From a bacterium (GTDB lineage: Bacteria > Oederibacteriota > CAKKQC01): a stretch of DNA of 64,000 bases. A program made the position numbers and the translations under genes. This document shows, one piece after another, positions 10,605-48,172 of this stretch (the first letter of the stretch is position 1; every line of letters starts with the position of its first letter). Under the pieces are notes generated by a model that saw only the letters and a program-made list of their open reading frames with translations, was not told the origin of the DNA and did not search any database. The stretch spans positions 87,517-151,516 of the forward strand of contig CAKKQC010000007.1 of the NCBI GenBank assembly GCA_919901855.1, given 5' to 3'.

Positions 10605-10859
10605 TTCCAGACCTTCCTGCCGCCGTTCATCCGTTCGCCGATCCCTCCCGTCGATTGGAACCCAACGCCTCCACGCACCGGGGACGTGGTCCGGCTCGGC
10701 CCAAGCATCCGTGCCTACCTAATAATATGCACGCGCCGTGCCGGGATGAGCCGTCGCCGTTGCTGGGGATCGGGGAGGCGGGGTGGGGAGAAAATTCCCG
10801 GGGGCGGGGTGCCAGCGCCCCACCGCTGTCAGGTGTCAGTCAGCGCGCCAGCCGCGCTT

Positions 10860-21766: not shown

Positions 21767-22723
21767 ATGCACAAGCGGGCGGGGGCGGGCATTCTGAAGC
21801 TGGCATCAATCATCGTGGTCGCCGGGATGGTGGCGGGCGCCGCGCGCGCCTCGGACCTGCTGGGTCCCATCTGGCATCTCAACGGCAAGCACATCGGCGA
21901 CGCCGATCCGCTGGTGTGGACGATCGAGTACTACGACGAATGGGGCCGCACGGTCGTCGACGCCGCGGGCGGACATTTCTACCACGACCGGTGCTGCGGC
22001 GGCGTGGTCACGCACGATCCATCGTGGGTTTACCCCGCGAAGTACTACGGCCAGTACAAGATGTACTACATCGGGACCACGATGCGGTACCGGATCACGC
22101 TCACGAATCCCGGCAATCGCAGCTACACGAACCTGCGCATCGTCGCGATCCAGGAGTACCTGACGAACGACGGGACGTGGGGCGAGTGGATTTCGCCCGA
22201 CGCCGCGAAGGACTGGTATATCACCGAACTCCGGTCGGGCCAGACGGTGGTGTTCGAGGGCGACCTCTACATCCCCTACGGGGCGCATGGCGGCCTCGAC
22301 CAGACGCACCTGCAGGTCCAGCACTTCGATCCGAACAATCCCACCGGCGGGGGCGCGGTCATCCTCGACGACGCGCAGGCCGCCATCTGGTGCCCGCCGG
22401 ACCTCCAGCAGGGCGCCACGGCCCCGGCGCCGGGCGGCATTCTCGTGAAGGCCGGCGATCGCGGCTGGGTCCAGCCGGGCTCCGGCTCACCGGCGCGGAT
22501 CGAGGTCGGCGCGACCGACGCGGGGCAGATCTCGCTCCGCATCTACGACCGCCGCGGCACGCTGGCCCGCGAGATGTTCGCCTACGCGAGCGGCGAGGGT
22601 ACGGTCGTGTTCTCGTGGGACGGCACGCTGTCGTCCGGCCAGCCCGCGGCCCCCGGCGTCTACCTCGTCGTGGCCGACGGCTCCGGCGTCCACGCCAAGG
22701 AGAAGCTCGCGGTCGTCAGGTAG
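21767..22723 (+). CDS. Secreted hypothetical protein with T9SS-type C-terminal sorting domain
   Basis: Track ORF; N-terminal hydrophobic signal; C-terminus GQISLRIYDRRGTLAREMFAYASGEGTVVFSWDGTLSSGQPAAPGVYLVVADGSGVHAKEKLAVVR resembles the Por_Secre_tail / FlgD-Ig-like fold. Confidence 0.75.
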   Translation: MHKRAGAGILKLASIIVVAGMVAGAARASDLLGPIWHLNGKHIGDADPLVWTIEYYDEWGRTVVDAAGGHFYHDRCCGGVVTHDPSWVYPAKYYGQYKMYYIGTTMRYRITLTNPGNRSYTNLRIVAIQEYLTNDGTWGEWISPDAAKDWYITELRSGQTVVFEGDLYIPYGAHGGLDQTHLQVQHFDPNNPTGGGAVILDDAQAAIWCPPDLQQGATAPAPGGILVKAGDRGWVQPGSGSPARIEVGATDAGQISLRIYDRRGTLAREMFAYASGEGTVVFSWDGTLSSGQPAAPGVYLVVADGSGVHAKEKLAVVR

Positions 22724-34703: not shown

Positions 34704-35150
34704 CTAGAGGCCGCGGACCCGGTCGCGGGAGAGGTGGTATGCCGTGGACTGCTGGATGAGCGTCGCGATGCCGGGATTCCTGAGGAGGACCGCGTCGAAG
34801 GCCTTGCGCGAGAGGCTGTAGAGCTCGCCATCCTCGTCGCCGATGATGGTCGCGGTGCGGGGTGTGTTCCCGAGGAGCGCGACCTCGCCGAAGTATGTCC
34901 GCGGCCCCATGGTGTTGATCCGCTGCTTCATCAGGAACCTGGACTTGAAGACTCCGACCTTGCCGGATGCCACGATGTAGAACCGGTCGCCCACCTCGCC
35001 CTGCCGGATGATGACGTCGCCCTTCCGGTACGTCTGCTTCTCCATGGCGTTCAGGAGCGCGTCGAGTTCCGCCATCTTTAGGTTCTGGAAGAACGAGATC
35101 CTCTGAAGCAGGACCCGGAAGTCCGCGAGTTCGGAGCTGGTCGGTTCCAT
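34704..35150 (-). CDS. Cyclic-nucleotide-binding domain protein (standalone cNMP-binding, no HTH)
   Basis: Track ORF; GDVIIRQGEVGDRFYIVASGKV...YFGEVALLGNTPRTATI. Confidence 0.75.
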   Translation of the reverse strand: MEPTSSELADFRVLLQRISFFQNLKMAELDALLNAMEKQTYRKGDVIIRQGEVGDRFYIVASGKVGVFKSRFLMKQRINTMGPRTYFGEVALLGNTPRTATIIGDEDGELYSLSRKAFDAVLLRNPGIATLIQQSTAYHLSRDRVRGL

Positions 35151-35241
35151 GTCTTCGATATTGTAGGCCCAAATGTCCGCTGGGCCAAGGTGTTATACTA
35201 CCGCCCATGCCGGGCCCAGCGAGAGCGGCGATCCGCGCCCG

Positions 35242-38200
35242 ATGACCAATCAGCCCTCGGGCCGCGGACCCCACCCCCCTCCGGACGACTTCGACGGCAC
35301 CCTGCGGCAGACCGACGATGCCGTCGGGAAGACCCGCGATCTATCCGTTCCCACCGGGGTCGAACAGCAGGCTAACGCGCCGCGCATAGCGGGGTATGTG
35401 CTGACGGCCCTGCTGGGGCAGGGGGCATACGCGCAGGTGTGGCGGGCATGGCAAGTCAGGACGCGGAAGTGGGTGGCCATCAAATGCTTCCTGGCGCGCG
35501 GCGGGGTGAACTGGATGCTCCTCCAGCGGGAGATGGAGCGGCTGATCCGGCTGGACAAGCACCCGCACATCGTGTCCCTGCTGGATGCCGACCTCACTTC
35601 GGACCCAGCCTGGTATGCGCTCGATCTCCTGGAAGCCGGATCGCTGGACCAATACGTGGACCCCACGAAGCTCGTGGGCGTGGACCGGGCGGCGAAGTGG
35701 ATGGAGGAGGTGGCGGAGGCGCTCTCGTACGTGCACTCGAAGGGGATCATTCACTGCGACCTCAAGCCCGCGAACGTCCTGCTCGACGACATGGGGCATG
35801 CGCGGGTGGCGGACTTCGGGCAGTCGAAGGTGCTGAACGAGTCGTCGGGCGCCCTGGGGACGCTCTTCTACATGGCGCCCGAGCAGGCGATGATTTCACA
35901 CGGCGGGGCGGGCGTCCAGCCGGACGTGCGGTGGGACGTGTACGCGCTGGGGGCGAGCATGTACGCGGTGCTTACGGGGAAGGTACCGAACCTGGAAAGC
36001 CTGAAGGCGCGGCTGACGGCGAGTGCCGGGCTGGAGGAGCGTCTGAACGCGTACCGGGAGCTGACGCGGGGAGCCGTGCTCCAGTCGTCGCGGGCGGTGC
36101 GCGGCCCGGTGGTGGACGAGGACCTGTCCGCGATCGTGGGCAAGTGCCTGGCGTACGACCCGAACCGGCGGTACGACTCGATGGGGGCGGTTCTGGCGGA
36201 TCTCAAGGCGCGTCGCGAGTCGCGTCCGGTGACTCCCCTGGCGCATCGCCGCCTCTACCGCGTGCACAAGGCCCTGCGCAGGAACCGCGTTGCCAACGCC
36301 GTCGCCGCCGTTGGGATCGCGTGCTTGGCCGTGGCGTTTGCCGAGATCGCGAGCGAACGGGATGCGGTCAAGAGCCAGATGGGCCTCCTGTACGGCGAGC
36401 GGGGGCGGCGGATGGCGGAGGCGAGTGACGACGCGTCGGCGTTCCTCTTCTTCGCCCGGGCGTACGCCATCTGCGGGACCGATGTGGCCCGCGCCAACGC
36501 GGCCTCCTTCGCGCGCGCCTTCCCCCTGCCCCTCGGCGTCCTCGAAGCCTCCCGGCCCGTGACGGGCGTCTGCTTCAGTCCCGACGGGAAACGGGTCGCC
36601 GTGCTCGAGTTCAACCGGACCGTCCGGCTCTGGGACCCGGCCGCGATGGCCAGGATCGGCGCGCCCTTGGCGCACGCCTACTCCGTCCGCCGGATGGCGT
36701 TCAGCCCGGACGGCAGTCGGCTGGTGACGGCCGGCGCCGACGGGGTGGCGCGCGTCTGGGACGCGGAGACGGGTGCGGAACTGGGGGTGATCTTGCGGCA
36801 CGAGGACGAGGTCACGGAGGCCGTCTTCGGCCCGGCGGGATCGTGGATCATGACGTCCGGGCTGGACGGGGTCGTATCCCGCTGGGACGCGAAGACCGGC
36901 AAGCGGCTGGGCACGGTCCGCACCGGATCGGCCGTGCTCGCGCTGGCGCTGAGTCCGGACAGGGCGACGTTCGCGACTGGGGGTGCGGATCGGACCGCGC
37001 GGCTGTGGCGGGCCGGGGGCATGACGCCGGCGGGGCCCCCCCTGCGGCATCGCGCCGCAGTGGCGGGAGTGGCTTTCAGCCCGGATGGCGCGAACCTGCT
37101 GGCCTGGAGCGAGGACCAGATGGCCCGGCTCTGGTCGGCCGGCGGGGTGTCCAGGCGCGAGCAGGGAGGCGTGTCCCGAATCTTCGACCGGCCGTTCAGT
37201 CCCGACGGACGGCGGCTCATCCTGGCCATGGACGGCCGGACGCTCCAGCTCATGGACATGGCAACGTGGCGGGCCCTGCCGGGCGTGATGACCCACTCCG
37301 ATTGCGTGAACGCCGCCGCCTTCAGTCCGGACGGCGCACTAATCGCCACGGCCTCGTCGGACGGAACGGTGAAGTTGTGGGACGGGCGGACCGCCGAGCC
37401 CACCGGCCGGAGCCTCCAGCACGACGGCGACGTCTACGCGGTCGCGTTCAGCGGAGACGGGAGACTGATCGTGAGCGGGGGAGCGGACCTCACCGCCCGC
37501 CTCTGGGGCAGGCCCGAAGCGGGGTCGCACCGGACGGAGCTCGCATTGCGGACCGCGCTGACCGCGGCGGCGCTCTCTCCGGACGGGTCGCGCGTGGCGA
37601 CGGGGGAGACCGGCAAGGTGATCCGGGTCCTGGATGCCCGCACGGGAACGGTACTGTGGACCCGACCGGTGAAGGAGATTCCCTCGCGGCTGGCGCTCAG
37701 CGGGGACGGCCGGTGGGTCGGCGCCGTCGTCGGCGGGACCTTCGTGGTCTTCGATGCGGCCTCGTCGGGTCCCCCGAAGGCCATGGGACGCGTAGACGAG
37801 GCGGTTCCGCCGTGCCTCAGCCGGGACGGCGGCCGGGCCATGACCGTGGACGGCGGCCGGATCCGGCTTTGGAACGTCGCGACGGGCGCGGCGGCCGGCG
37901 ACTTCGGGGGTGCGGACCCGGTGACCGCGGCGGAGCTGGACGCGGACGGCGTCACCGTCGCCTACGGGACGAGGGGCGGCGAGGCGGGCGTCTGGAACAG
38001 CCGGGGGGGGAAGAGGCAGGAACGGGCGACGCCCGCGGCGGGCGCCGCCGCCGGGGAGGACCGCCGGGCTGACAACCCCGTCGGCGCGGTGGCCCTCAGT
38101 CCGGACGGGCTGACCCTGGTATCGGCCGGTGCCGACCAGGCTGTCCGGGTCCGGGACGCCGCGTCCGGGGAAGAGACCGGGGTCGTCGTCCGGCCCGGCG

Positions 38201-38586
38201 GGACCGTCGTGCGCCTCGCCTTCTCGCCGGACGGCCGGGCGTTCGTGACCGCCTGCGACGACGGCTGGATCAGGATCTGGCACACCGGCACCGGCGAACT
38301 GCTGGGGAAGCCGCTGCGGGCCGACGGCGCGGTCTCGGCCCTGGTCTGCGCCAGTCTGGGCGACGGCGTCGCGGTCGTCGCAGTCGACATGGAAGGAAGG
38401 ACGCGGGCGTGGGACGCCGGGTGGCTGGCCGCCGCCGAGCCGCCCGCGGAGATCACGCGCAACGCGAACCTGGCGACCTTCCGCCGTGTCGATGAACGGG
38501 GCAGTATTGTTCCGCTGGGGCCGGGCGAGTTGGAGGCACTCAAACAGGGGAGGCCGTCTTCGGCGGTCTCGAGGAGGCACAAGTGA
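35242..38586 (+). CDS. Hanks-type Ser/Thr protein kinase with single TM segment and C-terminal WD40 beta-propeller repeats (paralog 1)
   Basis: Track ORF 35173..38586 trimmed to ATG 35242 (MTNQPSGRGPHPPPDDFDG) by alignment with paralog 2. Motifs GQGAYAQVW...VAIK, HCDLKPANVLL, DFG and APE; TM NAVAAVGIACLAVAFAEIA; repeated ...FSPDG..L.T.G.DG..RLWD... Confidence 0.8.
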   Translation: MTNQPSGRGPHPPPDDFDGTLRQTDDAVGKTRDLSVPTGVEQQANAPRIAGYVLTALLGQGAYAQVWRAWQVRTRKWVAIKCFLARGGVNWMLLQREMERLIRLDKHPHIVSLLDADLTSDPAWYALDLLEAGSLDQYVDPTKLVGVDRAAKWMEEVAEALSYVHSKGIIHCDLKPANVLLDDMGHARVADFGQSKVLNESSGALGTLFYMAPEQAMISHGGAGVQPDVRWDVYALGASMYAVLTGKVPNLESLKARLTASAGLEERLNAYRELTRGAVLQSSRAVRGPVVDEDLSAIVGKCLAYDPNRRYDSMGAVLADLKARRESRPVTPLAHRRLYRVHKALRRNRVANAVAAVGIACLAVAFAEIASERDAVKSQMGLLYGERGRRMAEASDDASAFLFFARAYAICGTDVARANAASFARAFPLPLGVLEASRPVTGVCFSPDGKRVAVLEFNRTVRLWDPAAMARIGAPLAHAYSVRRMAFSPDGSRLVTAGADGVARVWDAETGAELGVILRHEDEVTEAVFGPAGSWIMTSGLDGVVSRWDAKTGKRLGTVRTGSAVLALALSPDRATFATGGADRTARLWRAGGMTPAGPPLRHRAAVAGVAFSPDGANLLAWSEDQMARLWSAGGVSRREQGGVSRIFDRPFSPDGRRLILAMDGRTLQLMDMATWRALPGVMTHSDCVNAAAFSPDGALIATASSDGTVKLWDGRTAEPTGRSLQHDGDVYAVAFSGDGRLIVSGGADLTARLWGRPEAGSHRTELALRTALTAAALSPDGSRVATGETGKVIRVLDARTGTVLWTRPVKEIPSRLALSGDGRWVGAVVGGTFVVFDAASSGPPKAMGRVDEAVPPCLSRDGGRAMTVDGGRIRLWNVATGAAAGDFGGADPVTAAELDADGVTVAYGTRGGEAGVWNSRGGKRQERATPAAGAAAGEDRRADNPVGAVALSPDGLTLVSAGADQAVRVRDAASGEETGVVVRPGGTVVRLAFSPDGRAFVTACDDGWIRIWHTGTGELLGKPLRADGAVSALVCASLGDGVAVVAVDMEGRTRAWDAGWLAAAEPPAEITRNANLATFRRVDERGSIVPLGPGELEALKQGRPSSAVSRRHK
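35260..36260. repeat. ~1 kb direct repeat (kinase-domain coding region), copy 1; partner at 41407..42400 (~88-90% nt identity)
   Basis: Long identical runs, e.g. gacttcgacggcaccctgcggcagaccgacga and catcaaatgcttcctggcgcg / catcaagtgcttcctggcgcg. Confidence 0.7.
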
Positions 38587-41381
38587 AGGGACTCAAGAGT
38601 TTTCTGGAGGATCTGGGGCGGGGCGCGGGCACTGCGGCGGCCTGGGGACTGTGGGCGGAGGCGAGCCGGGCGCTCTTCGTGCTTGTCGGGTTGGGACTGG
38701 TCGTCGCCACGGTGGACGTGTTCCTGTCCATCTTTTGGAGGTGCGTGCCGTGGGAGTATTTCCAACTGTGGTATAGGATCGCGGCTGTGACGGTGGATCC
38801 GACCCCGGAGCTCCTCGGGTTCGTCGTGATCGTGATTGCGGGAGCCTTCGCGGCCTCGCTCCTGTTCGGCGCGATCTCGCTGGTGATGGCCCGGGGCCGC
38901 GCGGAGCCGGCCGCAGGCAGAGATGCGCCTGCGGCGGGAGCCGACAGGATCGTGGCCGCTGCCCGGCCGCTCTACACCGCGCTGGGAGCGGCAGGGGCGG
39001 GGTACGTTTTCCTTTGGCAGGTCTGGGAGGATCTCAACCGGGCCAGTTGGAACTGGGAGGGGAGTTTCATCTATGTCGAGCGGTCGGCGTTTCCCCTGAG
39101 CCTGGTGCAGGCGGACCTCGTCATCCTGCTGGGGCTGGCCGTGATCCTGATCGGGCTCGCCTGGACCCTGCCGGCGCGAGTCGACCGGGTCTTTGCCCGC
39201 GAGTCCCGGGCCGGGGAATCCGGATTGTGGGTGACGGGACTCCTCCATCTGCTCCTGGCGGTTTCGCTCGTTCCGGCCGCACTGCTCGTCTGGTCCGTGG
39301 GTTTCTCCGCCAGCACGGTCCTGGGCTTCCTGGACGGACACTGGCTCAGGATGCTCCTGGTCGTGGGTTTGCTCGTGGTCCTGTTCGTCCGGATGACCGG
39401 ATGGCGGCGCAACTTCCTCTCGTTGTTTACGGCCCCCGCTGGGTCGAGACCGGCCGGCGCGACGCTGAAGACGATGCTCGTGCACATGGTGATCCTCACG
39501 GCGGCCGCGGTCGGGTGCTGGGTGCCGGTGCGCGTGTACTGGTCCCTGAAGCTCCACGGGCTCGAGGGATCCGTCCGGCAGAAGGGGCATCCCGTGAGCC
39601 TGGCGGATCTGCCCAGACCGGTGGAAGGCCGGGCGCTCACCCGGGACGAGCTGGTCAAGGTCGTGGCCGAGTTCGATCGCGAAGCCAGTACGCCGGCCGA
39701 ACAGATCAGGATGCTCCGTGAGCGTGCCAAGGGGGAGGCGCTGGACTCCTGGAGACTCAAGCTCGCCGGGGGTGCGCCGGGCGGGGCTGCCGTACCTCCG
39801 GAGGCCACTCCGGGATTCGACGACCGCGGGTGGGAGAACGTGAAGGTGGGGGACGGTCCACAGCCCCAATTGGAGGGTCGCTTCGGATGGGCGTGGTTCC
39901 GCACGACGGTCAACCTCACCCGCAAGGACCTGGACGGCGGGCTGACGAGGCTGACCTTCTGGGGTGTCGACGAGAACGCGGTCGTCTACGTGAACGGGTC
40001 GTTGGTGGGCGAGCACCGGAAGTGGGTTGAGCCGTTCCAACTGGACGGACGGAAGGTATTCCGTCCCGGTGCCAACGTGATTGCCGTGTGTGTCGAGAAC
40101 ACGCAGGGCCCGGGGGGCATCTGGAGGCCCGTCCAGGTCACGCGGGCGATCGACATGAAGGCTTGGGCTGTGGCCGGCAAGACGAAGAGTTACTGGGGGA
40201 CCGTCGAGGACATGTACCTGGCAAAGGTTGTGCTTCGGCGTCGGGACGGCGAAGCCCTGCGCCATGTCCGAGCCGCACTCGGCACGGCCGCCGGCCAGAG
40301 CCTGCAGCGCCTGGCCGGGGTTTCCGACGGGCGCGCATCTTACCGGGCATGGGACTACCCGAAGCTGGCGAAGGCGCCGTTCGACTACCGGATGGCGATC
40401 GATGCCACGTGGTACGGATACGGCACTCGCCGCACCCTCTCGGCGTTTGACCGGGCGATGGTCCTGAAGGCCGCCGTGGACGCCTCCGACGGCCGGATCG
40501 GGGCCGCGTGGGAGGACTTGCGGACGGTGGTCCGACTGGGCCGCCTGTTGGGCCAGGATCCGTTGTTCGTTTCGAAGTACGTGGAAAGGGACGCCATGCG
40601 GGCCGCGGCGGAAGGGGCCGTCACGATCCTCCTCAACAGCCCCGCGGCGGAGCTTCCCCGGGACTTGGCGCGCGATTTCGAGAACGCGGCGGCGACGGAC
40701 TTCTTCCCGGAGGCGGTCCGGGCATCCATCGCGTGGACGCTGGACGCGCATCGGTGGGAGCGCCGTGGGTGGGTACGGCCGAATCTTCCCGACAGCTACG
40801 GGGGAACAGGCAGGAGACCATCCGGGATCGCCCGGCTGGACCTGAGTCTCCGGTACCTGACGGGGGCGTGGGACGCCTCCGTGTGGTCGGCGCTCGGCGT
40901 CCTGCGCGAGTTCTCGTCCCCGGTGCCGGGCGGGGAGCTCGAGGCCAAGCGGACCGCGTTCCTGGCGCGGTCGAGGCGGGGCGGGTACTTCTGGCAGGGC
41001 GATTATGATCTCGGGAACGGGCTGTTCAAGGGTTACGTCTACATCTGCAAGCACGAATGGGTGGACAGGATGTGGTTCCAGTTGCCGCTCGTTTGCTCCG
41101 GTCTCAACCGGTACCGCGCCCAGAACGGCCGGTTTCCTGCCGCCCTCAAGGAGTTGAGTCCGCGGTTCGTCCCGGCCGTCTGTCTCAAGGACCCGTTCAC
41201 GAACGGGTGGCTGAGCTACGAGGCGAAAGGGAGCAGCTACCAGATCCTGAGCGACGGACCGGACGGGAACGGCTTCGTCTACTGGGACAGCAAGAACCAC
41301 ACCTGGCGCACAAAGGTCCTGGTCCAGTATCCGTTGCCTCCGGCGGTCAAGGGCGACATCAGGATCATGAGGGAGCAGTAG
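38583..41381 (+). CDS. Polytopic membrane protein (~8 TM) with GH2-N/galactose-binding-like jelly-roll domain and pseudopilin (GspG)-like C-terminal domain
   Basis: Track ORF, GTG overlapping the kinase stop (GTGA); GWENVKVGDGPQPQ...LTFWGVDENAVVYVNGSLVGEH...GANVIAVCVEN; C-terminus CLKDPFTNGWLSYEAKGSSYQILSDGPDGNGFVYWD. Confidence 0.65.
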   Translation: MKGLKSFLEDLGRGAGTAAAWGLWAEASRALFVLVGLGLVVATVDVFLSIFWRCVPWEYFQLWYRIAAVTVDPTPELLGFVVIVIAGAFAASLLFGAISLVMARGRAEPAAGRDAPAAGADRIVAAARPLYTALGAAGAGYVFLWQVWEDLNRASWNWEGSFIYVERSAFPLSLVQADLVILLGLAVILIGLAWTLPARVDRVFARESRAGESGLWVTGLLHLLLAVSLVPAALLVWSVGFSASTVLGFLDGHWLRMLLVVGLLVVLFVRMTGWRRNFLSLFTAPAGSRPAGATLKTMLVHMVILTAAAVGCWVPVRVYWSLKLHGLEGSVRQKGHPVSLADLPRPVEGRALTRDELVKVVAEFDREASTPAEQIRMLRERAKGEALDSWRLKLAGGAPGGAAVPPEATPGFDDRGWENVKVGDGPQPQLEGRFGWAWFRTTVNLTRKDLDGGLTRLTFWGVDENAVVYVNGSLVGEHRKWVEPFQLDGRKVFRPGANVIAVCVENTQGPGGIWRPVQVTRAIDMKAWAVAGKTKSYWGTVEDMYLAKVVLRRRDGEALRHVRAALGTAAGQSLQRLAGVSDGRASYRAWDYPKLAKAPFDYRMAIDATWYGYGTRRTLSAFDRAMVLKAAVDASDGRIGAAWEDLRTVVRLGRLLGQDPLFVSKYVERDAMRAAAEGAVTILLNSPAAELPRDLARDFENAAATDFFPEAVRASIAWTLDAHRWERRGWVRPNLPDSYGGTGRRPSGIARLDLSLRYLTGAWDASVWSALGVLREFSSPVPGGELEAKRTAFLARSRRGGYFWQGDYDLGNGLFKGYVYICKHEWVDRMWFQLPLVCSGLNRYRAQNGRFPAALKELSPRFVPAVCLKDPFTNGWLSYEAKGSSYQILSDGPDGNGFVYWDSKNHTWRTKVLVQYPLPPAVKGDIRIMREQ

Positions 41382-41388
41382 CGGAAGG

Positions 41389-44300
41389 ATGACCGAACCC
41401 GCGACACCGCGCACGCCGCCGCCGGACGACTTCGACGGCACCCTGCGGCAGACCGACGAGGCCGTCGGGAAGACCCGGGATCTCTCCGTGCCCACCGGGG
41501 TCGAACAGCAGGCGAACGCCCCACGGATAGCCGGGTATGTCTTGACCGCCCTGCTGGGGCAGGGCGCGTACGCGCAGGTGTGGAAGGCGTGGCAGGTGCG
41601 GACGCGGAAGTGGGTGGCCATCAAGTGCTTCCTGGCGCGGGGCGGCGTGAACTGGATGCTCCTCCAGCGGGAGATGGAGCGATTGATCCGGCTGGACAAG
41701 CACCCGCACATCGTCTCCCTGCTCGATGCGGACCTGACGGCCGATCCTGCCTGGTATGCGCTCGACCTGCTGGAGGCGGGGTCGCTGGAGCAGTACGTGG
41801 ACCCGGCGAAGCTGGTGGGCGTGGACTCGGCGGCGAAGTGGATGGAGGAGATCGCGGAAGCGCTGTCGTATGTGCACACGAAGGGGATCATCCACTGCGA
41901 CCTGAAGCCGGCGAACGTGTTGTTGGACGACATGGGGCACGCGCGGGTGGCGGACTTCGGGCAGTCGAAGGTCCTGAACGAGTCGTCGGGCGCGCTGGGC
42001 ACGCTGTTCTACATGGCTCCGGAGCAGGCCATGATCTCGCAGGGCGGGGCGGGAATCCAGCCGGACGTGCGGTGGGACGTGTACGCGCTGGGCGCGAGCG
42101 CGTATGCGGTGCTGACGGGGAAGGTGCCGAACCTCGAGAGCCTGAAGGACCGGCTCACGACCAGCCCGGGGCTCGAGGACCGGCTGAGCGCGTACCGGGA
42201 GCTGACGCGGGGGGCCGTGCTCCCGTCGGCGCGGGAGGTGCGTGGCCTGGTGGTGGACGAGGACCTGTCCGCGATCGTGGGCAAGTGCCTTGCCTACGAC
42301 CCGGATGCGCGATACGACTCGATGGGAGCGGTGCTCGCGGATCTCAAGGCGCGGCGGGAGTCGCGACCGGTGACTCCGTTGGCTGCGAGTCGACGCTACC
42401 GAACGGGGAAGTTCCTGCGGCGCAACGCGATCTTGGTTGCCGTTTGCGGCATCGCGCTGGTTGCGCTCGCGGGAGCATTCAGCCAGGTCGTGCGGAAGCA
42501 GAGGCTCGCCACCCGCCAGTTGGCGGACTCCTACCTTCTGCGGGCTGAGCAGATGGCCGCGCAGGATGATGTGCCGGCCGCCGCCATCTACTCCGCGGAG
42601 GCCAACCGCATCCTGCCTTCCGCGGTGGCGCGCATGAACGGAATGGCATTCCTGAGCGAGATGGACATGCCTGTGTTCGAGGCGCGGGACGAGCACGAAC
42701 TGAAGCTGGCCGATTTCTGCGCGGATGGCGCGCAGATCGTGACCCTCTGCGACGAGGGGGAAATCAGGAGGTGGGATGCGGAGACCGGCAAGCCGGTCAG
42801 AGGCACCGTGAAGCTGGCCGGGGCCGGGCCGGGGATAGCCTTCGCCGAGATCAGCCAGGACCGGCGGACACTGCTCACCTGCGGTGATGGGGGGAAGGCC
42901 TGGGGGGGCGTCACGGTTCGGGTGTGGGATGTCGCAACCGGGAAGGCGATGGGTGAGCCCCTGAAGATGGGCCCGTTGATGACGATCGGGGGCTGGAATC
43001 TCGGCGCCATCTTCAGTCCGGACGGCGGACGCGTGCTGACTTTCGGTAACAGCGCGGTAGCCAGGCTGTGGGATGGGCGGAACCTGCGGGCGGTTGGCAA
43101 GGGCTTCGTGTGCGGCAGCACGGTGAGGGCCGCGGCGTTCAGTCCGGACGGGATGAGCGTGGCCACCGGAGGACAGGATGGGGTGCAACTCTGGAACATC
43201 AAGTCCGGCAAGGCATTGAACCTGCGGCATGGGGCGGAGGTCAGCCAGATATCCTTCAGCCGGGACGGCCGGTTGCTGGTGGTGGCGGGGGGGGCAGGCG
43301 TGCGCGTGTGGGATACCCGCACTGGTAAACAGGTCGGGCTGGAGTTCCGGCACGACAAGGATGTCAAGTTCGCGGCGCTCAGCCCGGATGGGTCGGGCCT
43401 GCTGACGGGGGGCGATGACCAGACCGGCCGGATGTGGGACGTCGGGACCGGCGAGCTCGTTCGCGGCGACCTGCGGCATCATGGGATGCTGCTCGGGGGG
43501 GAGTTCAGTCAGTACGGGACCCGTGTATTGACGGGTGCCGCCGACAACACTGCCCGGGTCTGGGGTCCCGAGCCGGGCAATCCACCCCTTCTGGTTCTAC
43601 ATCACGAGCGCCGACTCCTGGACGCCGTCTTCGGCCCGGACGGCACGAAGATCCTCACCCGGATGGAAGGCGGATCGGTGCGCATATGGGATGTGGCGCA
43701 GGCCGACCGGAAGGTGAGGACCATCCGTCCGAGCCCCTGGCTGGCGGATGTCCGGTTCAACCCGCGCCGGAACCTTATGGCCGTCGTGGACGGCTACGGA
43801 GCCATCACGCTGTTCCGGCGTGCGCGGCGCGGCTGGACCTACGTAGCGAAACACCCGTCGCTGGGCGGCATCCAGAAGGTATTCCTGGACTCGGAAGGCA
43901 AACGGGTGGTCGGCGTCGGCTGGGACAACTCCCTCGCGATCAGGGACGCCGGGAACGGGGAGATCGTCGCCCAGGTGCCTCCGGGGCCCGGAGAATGCCT
44001 GCTCGCGATGCCGAGTCCGGACGGGTTGCGGATCGTGACGGTGAGCCGTGATGCCGGGAGCGGCGATTTCGTATTCCGGGCTTTCAGAATGGAGGACGGG
44101 AAGCCCGACGGCAAACCGTTCACGGCCAAGGGCGGCGCCCCGTGGCTCGCCCTCAGCCCTGATTGCCGCAATGTCGTGCTGAAATCCGGCGACGGGAAGA
44201 CAACAAGGGTCTTCGATTTGGCGACCGGTTCTCAGGTGGGCTCTGACATGCGGCACGATTCCATTGTGCGCTACGTGCACTACGGCCAGGACGGTGAAGG

Positions 44301-46428
44301 GATTCTGGTGATCACCGAGGACGGGAAGGTCCGGCTCTGGGATCCGCGGACCGGACGGGCGGAAGGCCGGGCTTTCTCGTGCGGGCAGATCCTTGCGCTC
44401 ATCAGAGCCGAGGATGGCTGGCGAGCCCTCGAGGGCCGGCCGGGGTCCTTGCGCATCTGGGACGCAAAGCGGGGTGTGGCCGTGGGCCGGGATCTCTGGA
44501 TGCAGGGCGGGCTAACTTCGGTCTCCGCGTATCCCGGAGGAGGTAGGTTGTTGACCGGATGCAACGATGGTTCCGTCCAGCTCTGGGACCTGCGGACGGG
44601 GAGTCCGATCGGTTCCCCGGTCAGGTTTGCGAACGGCACGCGAAGCGTGGATCTGGGGAAGGACGGCACGGCTGCCGCGTTCAACTGGGTCGAGATGCGG
44701 GTCTGGAGCATCCACGATACCGACACGGCGGTGGAGCCGGATGACCTGGTCCTGCGCGCGCAGGTGATGACCCGCTGCCGGGTGGATGAGGCCGGCCGAA
44801 CGGAAGTCCTGACTCCCGCGGCGTGGCAGGCACTCTCGGCGCGTCTTTCGGCCGGGAAGCCGGCCGGGCCGGAGGGAAGCGGGACGGCGGACTGGTCGGC
44901 CGTAACGAGCCGCGCCCTTTCGGTCGGTGCCGGGCAGGTGGACCTCGCCGGAGCCTTGCGCGAACTGGGCCGGCTGATGTCCAGCGGCGCGCCGATTCTG
45001 GACGCCCTGGACGCCGTCGGCAAGAAATGCTCCGACCGGGCGCTGGCGGAAGCATTCGGCGAAGTCCGCAAGTCGCTCAGGGAGGGGATGTCGCTCGCCG
45101 GGCCCATGCGCGCCACCGGCGCTTTCCCTCCGCTCGTGATCCACCTGGTGTCCGCGGGATGCGAAATAGGCAAGCTGGACGCGATGCTGATCAAGGCGGC
45201 GGACCTGCTTCGGTCGCCGGTGGCGGGGAGCAACAGCGTTAAGGCCGAAACGGCGGCGGCCATGCGAGCGTTTGAGGCCATGACCGCCGCGGATTTGCGG
45301 ACGGGGCAATCGCTGGCGATTATAGGCGAATGGACAGCGAATACCGAGTTGCGCAAGGTCCTGTCGGGCATGGCGGACGAGCTCAACAGGAAAGTCAGCC
45401 TTCCCGCGGTTCTTGCCGCTCATGTGAACGTCTTCGGCGCCACCTGGCTCGGCAGAATCCCGCGCGGTAGCGAAGGAGACTGGAATGCGGTACTGAAAGC
45501 GCTTGCCGACTCCCTCGAGGAGGAGTTGATGAGGAGCGGAGTGGCGGGGAGCAACGCAGGAGGCTCCGTTGACGTGATGGAATGGGCGCTCAGCCGGGGC
45601 GGTGGGGGAGGGACAGCCGGCACTGGGCCGTTGCCGTTAGGCGATCTGGGGTTGGATCGGTCTGAGCAGGGCGCGATCGACCGCGCTTTGTCCGCCGGGC
45701 GGGGTCTCATCCTGTTCACGGGACCTGACGGGTCCGGCAAGACGACCACGGCCATTGCAGCCTTGGCCCGCGTCCGCGGCAAGAAGATCCACCTGGTGGG
45801 GGAGCATGTCGAGGAGTTGGAGCGTGCGGGAGCTTCCTTCCTTTCGACCGCCGGGGGTGGATTGGGATCCGCGCTCGAGTTGCTCGCGAAGAAGCCCGCA
45901 GGCGTGGTCCTCGTGGGCGACCTCGGGGATGCCTCCGAAATCCGGCTCGTCGGCAAGCTCGTTGCCGCAGGGCACCTGGTTATAGCCGTGGCCAGGGGCG
46001 ACGACTGCGCGGAGGTGGTTGCGCGGTTTGCCGGGCTCGTGGACCCGGCCACGGGGAAGCCGGTCGATGCCAAGGCGTTTTCCGACGCGCTCTCGCTGGT
46101 CGTTTCCCAGCGCCTGCTCCGCCGGGTATGCCGCGCCTGCGCGATACCCGCGGGGGACGGGACTGGCGAGTTCGCGGGCGTCTCCCTCATGAAGGGCGCG
46201 GGATGCCCGGCGTGCGGCAATTCGGGGTTCAAGGGCCGGGTCGCATCCTTCGAGCTTCTCCCGGCCACGGCGGCGGTCCGCGCCGCGGTGGCGAAGCGGG
46301 CCCGGGTGGAAGTCATCCGGAGTCTTGCGCTCAAGGAGGGCCTGATCCCGATGCGTCAGGCGGCGGTCGCGCAAGTTAAGGCCGGGCTGACGACGCCAGA
46401 TGAGTTCAGGAAGGGAGGGTTCCGCTAG
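41389..46428 (+). CDS. Ser/Thr kinase, TM, WD40 propeller, GspF-like cytoplasmic domain and GspE/PilB-like ATPase domain fusion (paralog 2, 1679 aa)
   Basis: Track ORF. N-terminal 330 aa ~90% identical to paralog 1; TM AILVAVCGIALVALAGAF; WD40 repeats; GMSLAGPMRATGAFPPLVIHLVSAGCEIGKLDAMLIKAADLL (T2SSF-like); LILFTGPDGSGKTTT (Walker A); VVLVGDLGD where GspE has VGEIRD; CRACAIP...GCPACGNSGFKGRVASFELL tetracysteine motif. Confidence 0.8.
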   Translation: MTEPATPRTPPPDDFDGTLRQTDEAVGKTRDLSVPTGVEQQANAPRIAGYVLTALLGQGAYAQVWKAWQVRTRKWVAIKCFLARGGVNWMLLQREMERLIRLDKHPHIVSLLDADLTADPAWYALDLLEAGSLEQYVDPAKLVGVDSAAKWMEEIAEALSYVHTKGIIHCDLKPANVLLDDMGHARVADFGQSKVLNESSGALGTLFYMAPEQAMISQGGAGIQPDVRWDVYALGASAYAVLTGKVPNLESLKDRLTTSPGLEDRLSAYRELTRGAVLPSAREVRGLVVDEDLSAIVGKCLAYDPDARYDSMGAVLADLKARRESRPVTPLAASRRYRTGKFLRRNAILVAVCGIALVALAGAFSQVVRKQRLATRQLADSYLLRAEQMAAQDDVPAAAIYSAEANRILPSAVARMNGMAFLSEMDMPVFEARDEHELKLADFCADGAQIVTLCDEGEIRRWDAETGKPVRGTVKLAGAGPGIAFAEISQDRRTLLTCGDGGKAWGGVTVRVWDVATGKAMGEPLKMGPLMTIGGWNLGAIFSPDGGRVLTFGNSAVARLWDGRNLRAVGKGFVCGSTVRAAAFSPDGMSVATGGQDGVQLWNIKSGKALNLRHGAEVSQISFSRDGRLLVVAGGAGVRVWDTRTGKQVGLEFRHDKDVKFAALSPDGSGLLTGGDDQTGRMWDVGTGELVRGDLRHHGMLLGGEFSQYGTRVLTGAADNTARVWGPEPGNPPLLVLHHERRLLDAVFGPDGTKILTRMEGGSVRIWDVAQADRKVRTIRPSPWLADVRFNPRRNLMAVVDGYGAITLFRRARRGWTYVAKHPSLGGIQKVFLDSEGKRVVGVGWDNSLAIRDAGNGEIVAQVPPGPGECLLAMPSPDGLRIVTVSRDAGSGDFVFRAFRMEDGKPDGKPFTAKGGAPWLALSPDCRNVVLKSGDGKTTRVFDLATGSQVGSDMRHDSIVRYVHYGQDGEGILVITEDGKVRLWDPRTGRAEGRAFSCGQILALIRAEDGWRALEGRPGSLRIWDAKRGVAVGRDLWMQGGLTSVSAYPGGGRLLTGCNDGSVQLWDLRTGSPIGSPVRFANGTRSVDLGKDGTAAAFNWVEMRVWSIHDTDTAVEPDDLVLRAQVMTRCRVDEAGRTEVLTPAAWQALSARLSAGKPAGPEGSGTADWSAVTSRALSVGAGQVDLAGALRELGRLMSSGAPILDALDAVGKKCSDRALAEAFGEVRKSLREGMSLAGPMRATGAFPPLVIHLVSAGCEIGKLDAMLIKAADLLRSPVAGSNSVKAETAAAMRAFEAMTAADLRTGQSLAIIGEWTANTELRKVLSGMADELNRKVSLPAVLAAHVNVFGATWLGRIPRGSEGDWNAVLKALADSLEEELMRSGVAGSNAGGSVDVMEWALSRGGGGGTAGTGPLPLGDLGLDRSEQGAIDRALSAGRGLILFTGPDGSGKTTTAIAALARVRGKKIHLVGEHVEELERAGASFLSTAGGGLGSALELLAKKPAGVVLVGDLGDASEIRLVGKLVAAGHLVIAVARGDDCAEVVARFAGLVDPATGKPVDAKAFSDALSLVVSQRLLRRVCRACAIPAGDGTGEFAGVSLMKGAGCPACGNSGFKGRVASFELLPATAAVRAAVAKRARVEVIRSLALKEGLIPMRQAAVAQVKAGLTTPDEFRKGGFR
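41407..42400. repeat. Direct repeat copy 2 of the kinase-domain coding region
   Basis: See copy 1. Confidence 0.7.
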
Positions 46429-46483
46429 ATATGCCAAGTGAAACGCACAACCCGCGCCGATCCGCAGCAGGAAAAGTGAAGCC

Positions 46484-48172
46484 ATGAGCTGGTTCATCGA
46501 GGCGCGGCCGAAGGGCGGAACGCCTGTAAGGCTCGAGATCATGCCCGGGAAGCCGGTAGTGATCGGCCGGTCCGACCAGGCGGACATGAAGGTTGCGGGC
46601 GACGGGTTCCTGAGCAGGCGGCATGTGGAGGTCAAGCTAGACGGGAAGCGGCTCGCGGTTCGCCGGCTCGAAGGCGCGTCGAACCCGGTCCTCTTCCGTG
46701 GCCAGGAGTCGGCGGAGTTCGCGATGGGGACCAACGACTGGTTCGCGATCGGGGAGACCCGGTTCGTCCTGCTCGGCGGCGAGGGAATGGTGCCGATCAA
46801 GACCGAAACGGACGACGCCCCCGCGGTCCAGCACACGATGAGCGAGGCCGACCTCTACGCGATGGGGGGGCGGGCGGACCGCATGCGGCTCCTGGACCTC
46901 GTCGAGCTGCCCGAGATGCTGAGGTCGATGAAGCGTGAGGAGTTCTTCGTGCACCTCGCCGGGATGATCCGGCTGGCCACCGACGCCCGATGGGCGGCGG
47001 TGGCGAACGAGAACGGCGAGGTGATCGCCCGGGACTGCATCGAGGACGCGCCGGCGGAATGGCGGATGAGCCGGTCCGTGATCAAGGCGGCCTTGCGCGA
47101 CGCGCCGCGGCCGACGCTGTGCGTCTGGGGCGGGACCGCCGGGTTCGAGGCGACGGTGCAGGAGGGGACCGACTGGGCGATCTGCGCCGCGATGAAGGTT
47201 CCGGGCGGCGCCCCGCTCGTGCTCTATGCCGCGGGCGAGGGGGGGGAGGAAGCCGCGCGCCGGCACGAGGAGAACTCGCGGTTCATTGGCCTCGTCGCGG
47301 ACATGGTGGGGCGCAGCCTCTCGGTCCACCGGCTGGAGTCGTGGCAGGGGCGCCTCGAGCACTACTTCTCCGGGCCCGTCATCTCCAAGATCCTGGAGTC
47401 CAGCGATCCCAAGGGGCTGGAGCCCCGGATCTCGCCGGCGACGATCATGTTCTTCGACATCCGCGGGTTCTCGAAGCGCACGGAGGGGCAGAACGAGCGC
47501 ATCCTGTCCTACCTGGGGGAGCTCCGCCGGATCATGACCGCGATGACCGAGGAGATCTTCAACGAGGGCGGCAACGTGCTCCAGTATCTGGGCGACGGCA
47601 TCATGGCGTGCTGGAACGTCCCGATCGAGGTGCCGAACCACGTGGACGGGGCGGTCCGCGCCGCGATGCGGATGGCCACGCGCCTTGGGGAAATGACCGA
47701 CGGCTGGAAGTGCGGGATCGGGCTGCACACGGGCGACGTCGTGGCGGGGTCGCTGGGGTCGGACCTCATGTTCTCGTACGGGGTCATGGGCGCGGTCGTG
47801 AACCAGTCGTCCCGGGTGGAGGGGATCACGAAGCACGTCGAGACCCCGATCCTGGTGACGAAGGAGATCGCGGAAAAGCTCTCGCCGGCGGTGGCGTTGA
47901 CCAGGCGGATCGGCCGGTTCCAGCCTGCGGGCATGCACGTCGCGCTCGATCTCTACGAGCCCCTGCCGCCCGACGCCGAGCGCGAGCCGCTCGCCGTCTA
48001 CGCGAAGGGCCTCGAGATCTTCGAGCGGGGCGACTGGGAGGAAGCCTACAAGGTCCTCGACCAGCTCGGCCACGAGGACCGGCCGGCGCGGTTCATCAAG
48101 GCGCTGGCCGAGAGCTACCGGCGCCATCCCCCCAAGGGCTGGCAGGGCATCATCGAGTTGAGCGAGAAGTAG
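46484..48172 (+). CDS. FHA-domain-containing class III adenylate/guanylate cyclase
   Basis: Track ORF; N-terminal FHA (PVVIGRSDQADMKVAGDGFLSRRHVEVK...NPVLFRG); C-terminal cyclase homology domain (MFFDIRGFSKRTEG...YLGDGIMACWN...GLHTGDVVAGSLGS). Confidence 0.8.
   Translation: MSWFIEARPKGGTPVRLEIMPGKPVVIGRSDQADMKVAGDGFLSRRHVEVKLDGKRLAVRRLEGASNPVLFRGQESAEFAMGTNDWFAIGETRFVLLGGEGMVPIKTETDDAPAVQHTMSEADLYAMGGRADRMRLLDLVELPEMLRSMKREEFFVHLAGMIRLATDARWAAVANENGEVIARDCIEDAPAEWRMSRSVIKAALRDAPRPTLCVWGGTAGFEATVQEGTDWAICAAMKVPGGAPLVLYAAGEGGEEAARRHEENSRFIGLVADMVGRSLSVHRLESWQGRLEHYFSGPVISKILESSDPKGLEPRISPATIMFFDIRGFSKRTEGQNERILSYLGELRRIMTAMTEEIFNEGGNVLQYLGDGIMACWNVPIEVPNHVDGAVRAAMRMATRLGEMTDGWKCGIGLHTGDVVAGSLGSDLMFSYGVMGAVVNQSSRVEGITKHVETPILVTKEIAEKLSPAVALTRRIGRFQPAGMHVALDLYEPLPPDAEREPLAVYAKGLEIFERGDWEEAYKVLDQLGHEDRPARFIKALAESYRRHPPKGWQGIIELSEK

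Follow-up and report, generated by a model that had tools for sequence, protein, structure and literature searches.

The stretch of DNA analyzed here (the window; 64,000 nucleotides of contig CAKKQC010000007.1, GenBank assembly GCA_919901855.1) carries five genes that an earlier note, made from the sequence alone, had described as a candidate signaling or secretion-like module. They encode a cyclic nucleotide monophosphate (cNMP)-binding protein, which is read divergently from the others, a Ser/Thr kinase with a WD40 propeller (kinase 1, K1), a polytopic membrane protein with a sugar-binding domain, a second kinase-WD40 protein (kinase 2, K2) whose C-terminus runs on into domains related to GspF and GspE/PilB of the type II secretion system (T2SS) and the type IV pilus (T4P), and a class III nucleotidyl cyclase with an FHA-like domain. 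All five open reading frames (ORFs) were found at the coordinates that the note had claimed (Table 1), and Pfam backed nearly every one of its domain calls. In this window, with a G+C content of about 70%, third-position GC (GC3) was used to sort real genes from the many spurious high-GC ORFs; the five ORFs of the module had GC3 values of 0.84 to 0.94, indicating true frames. The gene spacing that had been proposed could be read directly from the sequence: the stop codon of K1 and the start codon of the polytopic gene overlap as GTGA, the 7 bp between the polytopic gene and K2 contain GGAAGG, and the cyclase gene follows K2 on the same strand after 55 bp. The genes for K1, the polytopic protein, and K2 are thus coupled in translation, and a diverged relative has all three together as well (see below).

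Both kinases have the Ser/Thr kinase-transmembrane (TM) helix-WD40 architecture that had been claimed for two paralogs, with the kinase domains and propellers supported by Pfam and the helices by hydropathy. The Hanks motifs VAIK, HCDLKPAN (non-RD), DFG, and APE are all intact in the translations of K1 and K2. K1, a non-RD (HCD) Hanks Ser/Thr kinase, has one hydrophobic helix (Kyte-Doolittle hydropathy [KD] 2.1) and about 14 WD40 blades. The earliest ATG of its ORF, at 35173, offers an alternative start; the start at 35242, as in the note, is preferred because the N-terminus of K2 aligns from there. Over the first ~330 residues, K1 and K2 share 92% protein identity, which falls to ~30 to 44% beyond, and the 968-bp block of high DNA identity (Table 1) spans the kinase domain and the juxtamembrane region. 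From this likeness, either gene conversion or a (recent) partial duplication, limited to the kinase module, is suggested.

The combination of a Ser/Thr kinase with WD40 repeats is common in bacteria (PMC2176072), and PknD/Mbk of Mycobacterium tuberculosis is a Hanks kinase with an extracytoplasmic NHL β-propeller (PMC1262709). K1, in which one helix links the N-terminal kinase to the propeller at the C-terminus, fits this plan fully, whereas K2 runs on for 570 aa with GspF- and GspE-like (F/E) domains, in conflict with a receptor-kinase topology.

Table 1. Positions of the genes, domains, and other features of the module in the window
Feature	Position	Strand	Evidence
cNMP-binding protein, 148 aa	34704..35150	-	Pfam cNMP_binding, E 4.7e-23
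Divergent intergenic region, cNMP gene/K1	35151..35241	.	Sequence
Sigma-70-like match between cNMP gene and K1	35188..35160	-	Single consensus match only
K1	35242..38586	+	Pfam Pkinase, E 1e-41; WD40, E 3e-66
K1 block matching K2 41416-42383	35275..36242	+	blastn, 968 bp, 88% DNA identity, ungapped
Polytopic membrane protein, 932 aa, GTG start	38583..41381	+	ORF; NCBI name "sugar-binding domain-containing protein"
N-terminal membrane domain of polytopic protein	38670..39530	+	Hydropathy: 6 strong and 1 weak hydrophobic segments
GH2-type sugar-binding jelly roll (aa 428-508)	39864..40106	+	Glyco_hydro_2_N, E 3.1e-8, 34.2 bits (cut-off 28)
GspG-like motif region (aa 841-896), LNRYRAQNGRFP ... 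DPFTNGWLSYEAKGSSYQILSDGPDG	41103..41270	+	Local alignment to E. coli GspG
K2, 1679 aa	41389..46428	+	Pfam; continuous ORF
K2 Hanks kinase domain (aa 51-310)	41539..42318	+	Pkinase, E 6e-40
K2 sole strong hydrophobic helix (aa 347-365)	42427..42483	+	KD 2.5
K2 WD40 β-propeller region (aa ~439-1100)	42703..44688	+	WD40 and propeller families (Pfam)
GspF-like repeat A (K2 aa 1182-1272), cyto2-like	44932..45204	+	43% identity, E 1e-20, to P0275 aa 278-372
GspF-like repeat B (K2 aa 1287-1380), cyto1-like	45247..45528	+	25% identity, E 4e-8, to P0275 aa 82-176
GspE/PilB C-terminal ATPase-like domain (K2 aa ~1415-1679)	45631..46425	+	Pfam T2SSE; PDB alignments; AlphaFold2/Foldseek
FHA-like domain, middle domain, and class III cyclase, 562 aa	46484..48172	+	Guanylate_cyc, E 1.2e-13; nearest PDB entry Cya2 2w01
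FHA-like domain of cyclase (aa 18-97)	46535..46774	+	Yop-YscD_cpl, E 2.5e-4; FHA, E 5.7e-3
Cyclase catalytic domain (aa 315-473)	47426..47902	+	Alignment to 2w01 and 6fht

GspF-like and GspE-like domains in the tail of K2

In K2, the kinase, the hydrophobic helix, and the WD40 region are followed by two repeats of the GspF cytoplasmic domain and by a domain resembling the C-terminal ATPase domain of GspE/PilB. The GspF-like and GspE/PilB-like P-loop domains had been predicted in the note, and they were supported by Pfam, PDB, and NCBIfam searches, the ATPase-like domain also by a fold search. Pfam T2SSF matched K2 aa 1189 to 1288 (E 4e-18), and the NCBIfam GspF model matched in two stretches with 88.2 bits, against an equivalog cut-off of 424. 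Aligned to the canonical GspF P0275, repeat A stops at the entry of TM3 and repeat B at the entry of TM1. Repeat A also matched PilC of Myxococcus xanthus (PDB 3jc8; E 2.6e-19). While P0275 has TM segments at residues 190-208, 218-254, and 392-410, none was found in K2 past aa 365 (best KD 1.5).

For the ATPase-like domain, the Pfam T2SSE match covered K2 aa 1417 to 1672 (E 5e-26) and profile positions 121 to 367 of 370. As the match starts only at position 121 and no T2SSE_N was detected, the N1E and N2E domains are absent from K2, and the GspF-like repeats fill the sequence ahead of the ATPase-like domain. Walker A is kept (GPDGSGKTTT), as is the tetracysteine Zn site (CRAC...CPAC), which was invariant in the motif alignment. 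The Asp box reads GEHVEE in the same alignment, with both Glu retained and Asp replaced by His (canonical EDPxE). Walker B is altered (VVLVGDLGD; canonical hhhhGEhRD) by changes of Glu to Asp and of Arg to Gly, and in the His box, GHLVIAVARGDD, the first His is retained and the second is replaced by Arg (canonical GHLV..T.HT). Scores against the NCBIfam models were 111.6 bits for PilB and 108.6 bits for GspE, compared with equivalog cut-offs of 675.65 and 630.25, respectively. An AlphaFold2 model of the ATPase half was of high confidence (predicted local distance difference test [pLDDT] ~90 to 97), and Foldseek matched it to PilF/PilB/GspE with E 4e-22 and a root mean square deviation of 2.1 to 3.0 Å. 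The GspF-like half of the model, for which there were no alignment rows, was of low confidence, and no F-E packing is claimed. An initial MAFFT alignment of the tail, which set the N-terminal halves of GspE on the GspF-like region, was discarded and a new alignment was used.

K2 thereby shares with GspE/GspF of the T2SS and PilB/PilC of the type IVa pilus both GspF cytoplasmic helical domains and a C-terminal RecA-type ATPase domain. However, its GspF-like repeats run in the order cyto2-like, then cyto1-like, the three TM segments are missing, and the platform lies ahead of the ATPase in one polypeptide, fused behind a kinase-WD40 protein. We conclude that the K2 tail is homologous to the GspF and GspE families at the domain level, yet without several of their defining features.

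The junction between the WD40 region and the tail was inspected for an overlooked boundary between two genes, and it had no stop codon, no drop in GC3, and no convincing ribosome-binding site with a start codon. GC3 was 0.74 to 0.96 throughout K2 and 0.77 to 0.90 over the junction. Independent contigs from Hainich groundwater supported the K1/polytopic/K2-start junctions and the K2-end/cyclase junction with 99.9 to 100% identity; none of them spans the WD40-tail junction. A single-base error at this point is conceivable, and a soluble F-E protein would remain even then.

Among 1.84 billion representative proteins, covered by word-indexed and exhaustive searches, no other protein matched both the F-like and the E-like halves of the tail. 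Thousands of GspE/PilB proteins matched the ATPase half only, and the GspF-like half as a query retrieved canonical GspF/PilC proteins of ~400 aa only. Top matches of ~1000 aa were considered as E-F fusions and rejected, being tandem GspE-GspE proteins; P0122, P0124, and similar proteins carry two full GspE/PilB units in tandem and are among the best-scoring relatives of the ATPase half. Many GspE/PilB-like ATPases of ~700 to 750 aa (P0002, P0016, P0035) carry a C-terminal response-regulator receiver domain (PF00072). Judged from these sequences, ATPases of the GspE/PilB family are commonly fused to signaling domains, but not to Ser/Thr kinases.

The closest relative of the tail is a pair of separate genes, E' and F', on a contig designated L008 (positions 474-3687; GCA_023265785.1, JAHFSL010000349.1). 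The E' protein, P0123 (264 aa, GspE-like, C-terminal domain only), is 41% identical to the tail over its full length, and K2 and P0123 have in common an insertion behind the His box, a short "PAGDG" linker between the CxxC pairs, and a degenerate His box. F' (302 aa, GspF-like) is 48% identical to repeat A, above any canonical GspF. The full-length likeness of P0123, the shared insertion, linker, and degenerate His box, and the match of F' to repeat A point to a reduced E'/F' gene pair of this kind as the most likely ancestor of the K2 tail. The pair also differs from the tail: E' precedes F', no kinase or WD40 region is attached, F' retains its TM segments, and Walker A of E' reads GIGGSGKANT. 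In this cluster, which was also found on a second contig (L009), a gene for a CsgG-like lipoprotein lies upstream of E' (P0123), and a secreted protein is encoded as well. The cluster may itself be a separate, reduced system derived from T2SS/T4P.

The polytopic protein had a single homologue (P0121, 60% identity) among 5.8 billion proteins. On the contigs that bear it (L005 and L006), the order K1-polytopic-K2 is kept, with 60 to 80% identity, and the contigs end before the tail. On another contig, L007 (ENA ERZ27247974 k141_237228), the C-terminal 78 residues of a tail of the K2 type were found at 86% identity. In this copy (L007:1-1325), TGG stands in place of the TAG stop codon of the tail and the frame runs on into a PilM-like domain, after which a third kinase-WD40 gene follows with a 4-bp overlap. 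Whereas the L007 copy may be a true fusion, it may equally be a remnant or an error at the end of the contig. The ratio of nonsynonymous to synonymous substitution rates (dN/dS) was 0.11 to 0.46 across all parts compared, and 0.32 for the end of the tail. Of the neighborhood, K1-polytopic-K2 recurs and a PilM-like domain with a kinase adjoins a related tail, while the cyclase and the cNMP-binding protein have been seen next to the kinases in this genome only.

A scan of metagenome contigs with the tail returned the window's own metagenome only, and no record was found for the exact K2 and cyclase proteins. The sequence of the polytopic protein is that of NCBI MEK7474781.1, from a metagenome-assembled genome (MAG) of a Candidatus Coatesbacteria bacterium, and the same sequence occurs in the Hainich groundwater assemblies. 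In the literature, we found no description of a kinase-WD40-GspF-GspE protein and nothing specific on signaling in Coatesbacteria, and surveys of kinase architectures list no combination with T2SSE or T2SSF. The five-gene architecture is real, apparently undescribed, as the note had held, and very rare.

The polytopic protein, the cyclase, and the cNMP-binding protein

For the polytopic protein, eight TM segments had been proposed. Hydropathy gave six strong and one weak hydrophobic segments instead, and the charges of the loops, by the positive-inside rule, fit seven TM segments with the N-terminus inside and the C-terminus outside, which favors a periplasmic C-terminal domain. No Pfam family matched the membrane domain. 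The proposed sugar-binding jelly roll was upheld by a Pfam match above the cut-off (Table 1), and NCBIfam also gave jelly-roll matches in this protein.

The GspG- or pseudopilin-like C-terminus described in the note found support at the level of a motif only. When compared with the C-terminal consensus DPWGNxY...Y.L.S.G.DG of GspG, the region gave a 27-residue local alignment to aa 100-127 of Escherichia coli GspG, with 41% identity and a z score of 4.07; 2 of 300 shuffled sequences reached the same score. It lies in the best-conserved part of the protein, the last ~60 aa of which are nearly invariant in comparison with P0121. Local alignment of the C-terminus to GspH, GspI, and GspJ gave no signal, the T2SSG profile had no Pfam match there at E ≤ 10, and a PDB sequence search returned no solved pseudopilin. 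Furthermore, neither a prepilin leader nor the conserved Glu5 nor a hydrophobic alpha-1 helix is present in the sequence ahead of the motif.

The last gene of the module encodes a class III cyclase, as had been claimed, in which the motifs FFDIRGF, LGDGIM, and VNQSSR align to Cya2 with both metal-binding Asp and the transition-state Asn and Arg in place. The second specificity position, Gly (SYGVMG), is likewise shared with Cya2 (2w01), as is the class III fold. Residue 488 of Cya2 sets the base specificity, being Glu, or Lys in an engineered adenylate cyclase (PMC5995499). The base-specifying position of the present cyclase, which corresponds to Glu488, is Gln (GGNVLQYLGDG), not the Glu of guanylate or the Lys of adenylate cyclases. 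The designation as an adenylate cyclase producing cAMP was not sustained: with Gln at the base position, Cya2 as the nearest solved cyclase, and a receptor that is closest to the cGMP-binding sites of PKG, cAMP is not established, and these sequence features make cGMP at least as likely a product as cAMP.

The N-terminal region of the cyclase scored below the cut-offs of both profiles that it matched (FHA, 17.5 bits against 20.7; Yop-YscD_cpl, 21.7 bits against 33.2). In the PDB, however, seven of its eight best matches were FHA domains, and the phosphothreonine (pThr)-binding residues IGR, SRRH, and SN are present and align with those of Rv0020c and 3gqs. The FHA assignment of the note is thus weakly supported, by the PDB matches and the binding residues and not by the profiles. 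No Pfam family or solved structure matched the ~180 residues that follow (aa 120-300, within 46484-47425). By eye this middle domain looks GAF-like; no search supports GAF.

The standalone cNMP-binding protein was confirmed. It consists of the cyclic nucleotide-binding domain only, without an effector domain, and its phosphate-binding cassette, FGEVALLGNTPRTAT, is intact (…PRTAT). The nearest solved domains are the cGMP-binding sites of PKG, followed by the regulatory subunits of PKA, and the cassette aligns to both.

The module is flanked upstream by a GH92-PA14 glycosidase gene and downstream by a zinc alcohol dehydrogenase gene, both unrelated to it. The remaining genes of the window encode glycosidases, GNAT acetyltransferases, a ketosynthase, and surface proteins of very large size. 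When every large ORF in the window was scanned with Pfam, no canonical T2SS/T4P gene (secretin, prepilin peptidase, pilin, PilM) was found, and tblastn of the window with the E. coli Gsp proteins, PilM, and F' found no T2SS/T4P machine gene. No Rfam element and no convincing terminator or promoter was found in the module. Two observations were made on the surface proteins. A giant ORF on the minus strand (3-10718; >3572 aa, running off the window) contains a fervidolysin-type prodomain, an S8 subtilase domain, and many DUF11/DUF7507/CARDB repeats, and probably encodes a huge surface protease or adhesin. On the plus strand, a surface protein of 1892 aa (14650-20328; DUF7507, CARDB, Big_1) and the smaller product of 21767-22723 both end in an FlgD_ig-like domain; this common end may be a C-terminal sorting or anchoring domain.

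Signaling module, filament-derived machine, or chance neighborhood

The reading that we tentatively favor is that the locus encodes a lineage-specific Ser/Thr-kinase signaling module with exapted T2SS/T4P parts, and not a secretion or pilus machine. It argues against a secretion device that the platform has no membrane segments, that the ATPase lacks its N-domains and has two altered catalytic motifs, that the pseudopilin-like piece would be unable to polymerize in the known way, and that the remaining machine components are absent from the window. For the same reasons, the "secretion-like" part of the earlier label was not borne out, and the interpretation given in the note is partly supported. 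In the signaling module that we propose, the tail would no longer drive filament assembly and would instead serve as a nucleotide-binding, oligomerizing, or docking module through which the activity of the kinase is linked to a partner of the T2SS/T4P type; the PilM-like domain would be among the partners of the tail in a relative. Sensing, possibly of a glycan, would fall to the polytopic protein together with the WD40 propellers. The non-RD kinases, if active, would lay down phospho-Thr marks to be read by the FHA domain of the adjoining cyclase, and the cyclic nucleotide made by this enzyme would be bound by the divergently encoded single-domain receptor. Such an output, in which the kinases act on the FHA-cyclase and its cNMP on the receptor, is reasonable but unproven; the relay, already drawn in the note, is plausible and also generic, and the adjacency of its genes was seen in this genome only. 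On L007, which stems from a closer relative, the PilM-like domain and a kinase gene, and not a cyclase gene, follow the tail. The presence of PilM and a third kinase on the same tail in L007 makes the link between kinases and T4P-like parts stronger.

Several observations weigh against this proposal. The single helix between kinase and WD40 region would put the cytoplasmic-type F/E tail of K2 across the membrane from its kinase; to our knowledge, GspF/GspE-type domains are cytoplasmic in all known systems. The WD40-tail junction (~44800-44940) is covered by the present low-coverage-derived assembly alone, and the L007 copy has a frameshift and a stop codon just ahead of the homologous stretch. 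No cyclase or cNMP receptor was seen beside the kinases in relatives, of which L007 is the sole contig to extend past the tail. A scan of species-representative genomes with the polytopic protein gave unrelated jelly-roll matches only and no homologue, and the comparative power is therefore very low. The AlphaFold2 model of the polytopic protein, built from a two-sequence alignment, had a pLDDT of 33 and was left unused for fold searches. Finally, the conservative change of Glu to Asp in Walker B is insufficient to prove a loss of ATPase activity.

A rival reading, in line with the "secretion-like" label of the note, is that the locus encodes a working minimal type IV filament- or T2SS-like apparatus gated by the kinases, in which the K2 tail would be motor and platform, the polytopic protein the membrane-embedded part with its GspG-like end as a tethered pseudopilin tip, and phosphorylation and the cyclic nucleotide the switch. 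Three or four T2SS/T4P-derived parts do occur near the kinases (GspF-like, GspE-like, PilM-like in L007, and the GspG-type motif), the tail has preserved Walker A, the two Glu of the Asp box, and the Zn site, dN/dS (0.32) indicates purifying selection on its end, and the polytopic protein could in principle stand in for the lost TM segments of GspF. Known GspE/PilB hexamers, however, need N2E for their clamp motion, and K2 lacks it together with the TM segments of the platform; the Walker B Glu and a His-box His are changed, by its topology the tail would lie across the membrane from where a motor is needed, and the supposed pseudopilin has no match in Pfam or the PDB, nor the leader and alpha-1 helix through which polymerization is known to occur. 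With secretin, prepilin peptidase, and pilins also missing from the window, we consider a working apparatus improbable. A related idea is a type IV filament-derived device of a class not seen before, in which a kinase covalently joined to a soluble platform/ATPase (and to PilM in relatives) would act with a polytopic protein that ends in a pseudopilin-like knob. Such a device could be a mechanical or nucleotide-driven transducer across the envelope controlled by phosphorylation and cNMP, and not a mere scaffold; we give it little weight. At the other extreme, K1, the polytopic protein, and K2 might form one sensing unit with the cyclase and the cNMP-binding protein as independent neighbors, the tail having little function, whether it is an evolutionary leftover or arose through loss of a stop codon or an assembly error. 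The restriction of the cyclase/receptor adjacency to this genome, with other genes following the tail in L007, speaks for such an incidental neighborhood, as do the degenerate catalytic motifs and the very common pairing of Ser/Thr kinases with FHA domains (PMC2176072). The loss of the stop codon (TAG to TGG) at the end of the L007 tail would likewise fit gene boundaries that are labile or error-prone, and near the junction in K2, known from one assembly, 16 codons are one substitution away from a stop. On the other hand, GC3 is of the coding type through junction and tail, the tail end is 86% identical to that of a relative with dN/dS below 1 (0.32), neither Walker A nor any of the four Cys has been lost, and the cyclase gene lies only 55 bp behind K2 on the same strand. 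That all three TM segments of GspF were removed so exactly, while the two helical domains stayed, looks like selection and not decay. Of the rival readings, we rank an incidental neighborhood highest, though we consider it unlikely.

A role in anti-phage defense, with a Pycsar-like cyclase, a cNMP sensor, and defense-type Ser/Thr kinases as sensors or effectors, and with an unusual, possibly pyrimidine, cyclic nucleotide, was weighed as well. The cyclase reached a higher score with the PycC model of Pycsar (71 bits, E 1.9e-20) than with Guanylate_cyc of Pfam (51 bits), its base-specifying Gln is non-canonical, PycTIR effectors match the receptor in their cNMP-binding part, and the kinases match the mad6, PD-T4-6, and Stk2 models. 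These kinase matches are, however, confined to the generic Hanks domain, and the 148-aa receptor has neither a TIR nor a TM killing domain, so that no Pycsar-type effector is present. The cyclase, with its FHA-like and ~180-aa middle domains, is unlike those of two-gene Pycsar systems and unlike Cya2 or PycC, the nearest solved cyclase and receptor are of the purine type (Cya2, PKG/PKA), and the flanking glycosidases and dehydrogenase are not defense or mobile genes. We therefore regard a defense island as very improbable.

Parallels to the favored signaling module exist in better-known systems. In the Pseudomonas H1 type VI secretion system (H1-T6SS), the membrane Hanks kinase PpkA, together with PppA and the FHA protein Fha1, is encoded with a secretion nanomachine and follows the same pThr-FHA logic; there, PpkA regulates a complete, working T6SS and Fha1 is a scaffold. 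At the present locus, in contrast, the machine fragments are fused to the kinase and the FHA-like domain sits on a nucleotidyl cyclase. In Synechocystis, SpkA/SpkB, Cya1, and the cAMP receptor SYCRP1 control T4P (PMC7076178), so that a Ser/Thr kinase, a class III cyclase, and a cNMP receptor are likewise tied to T4P components. The Synechocystis genes, however, are dispersed, the T4P is complete, and the receptor is of the CRP type, whereas at the present locus the receptor lacks an output domain and the kinase itself contains the T4P-like parts. What K2 has in common with GspE/PilB themselves (Walker A, the Asp-box glutamates, the first His of the His box, the Zn site, and the fold) stands beside the lack of N1E/N2E, the altered Walker B and second His, and the lack of other T2SS/T4P genes nearby.

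The family is extremely rare, known from one candidate-phylum MAG and a few metagenome fragments, and its impact will be limited unless the E'/F' family proves widespread. If the favored reading is true, the locus would be a case of exaptation in which the platform and motor of a T2SS/T4P, stripped of membrane segments and N-domains, have been built into a eukaryote-like Ser/Thr kinase. Its cyclase, in which Gln occupies the base-specifying site, is an unusual addition to this enzyme class, and K2, as a natural soluble F-E fusion, is a possible structural reagent for the GspE-GspF interface. More broadly, the locus bears on how Ser/Thr phosphorylation is wired to envelope machines and to cyclic-nucleotide signaling.

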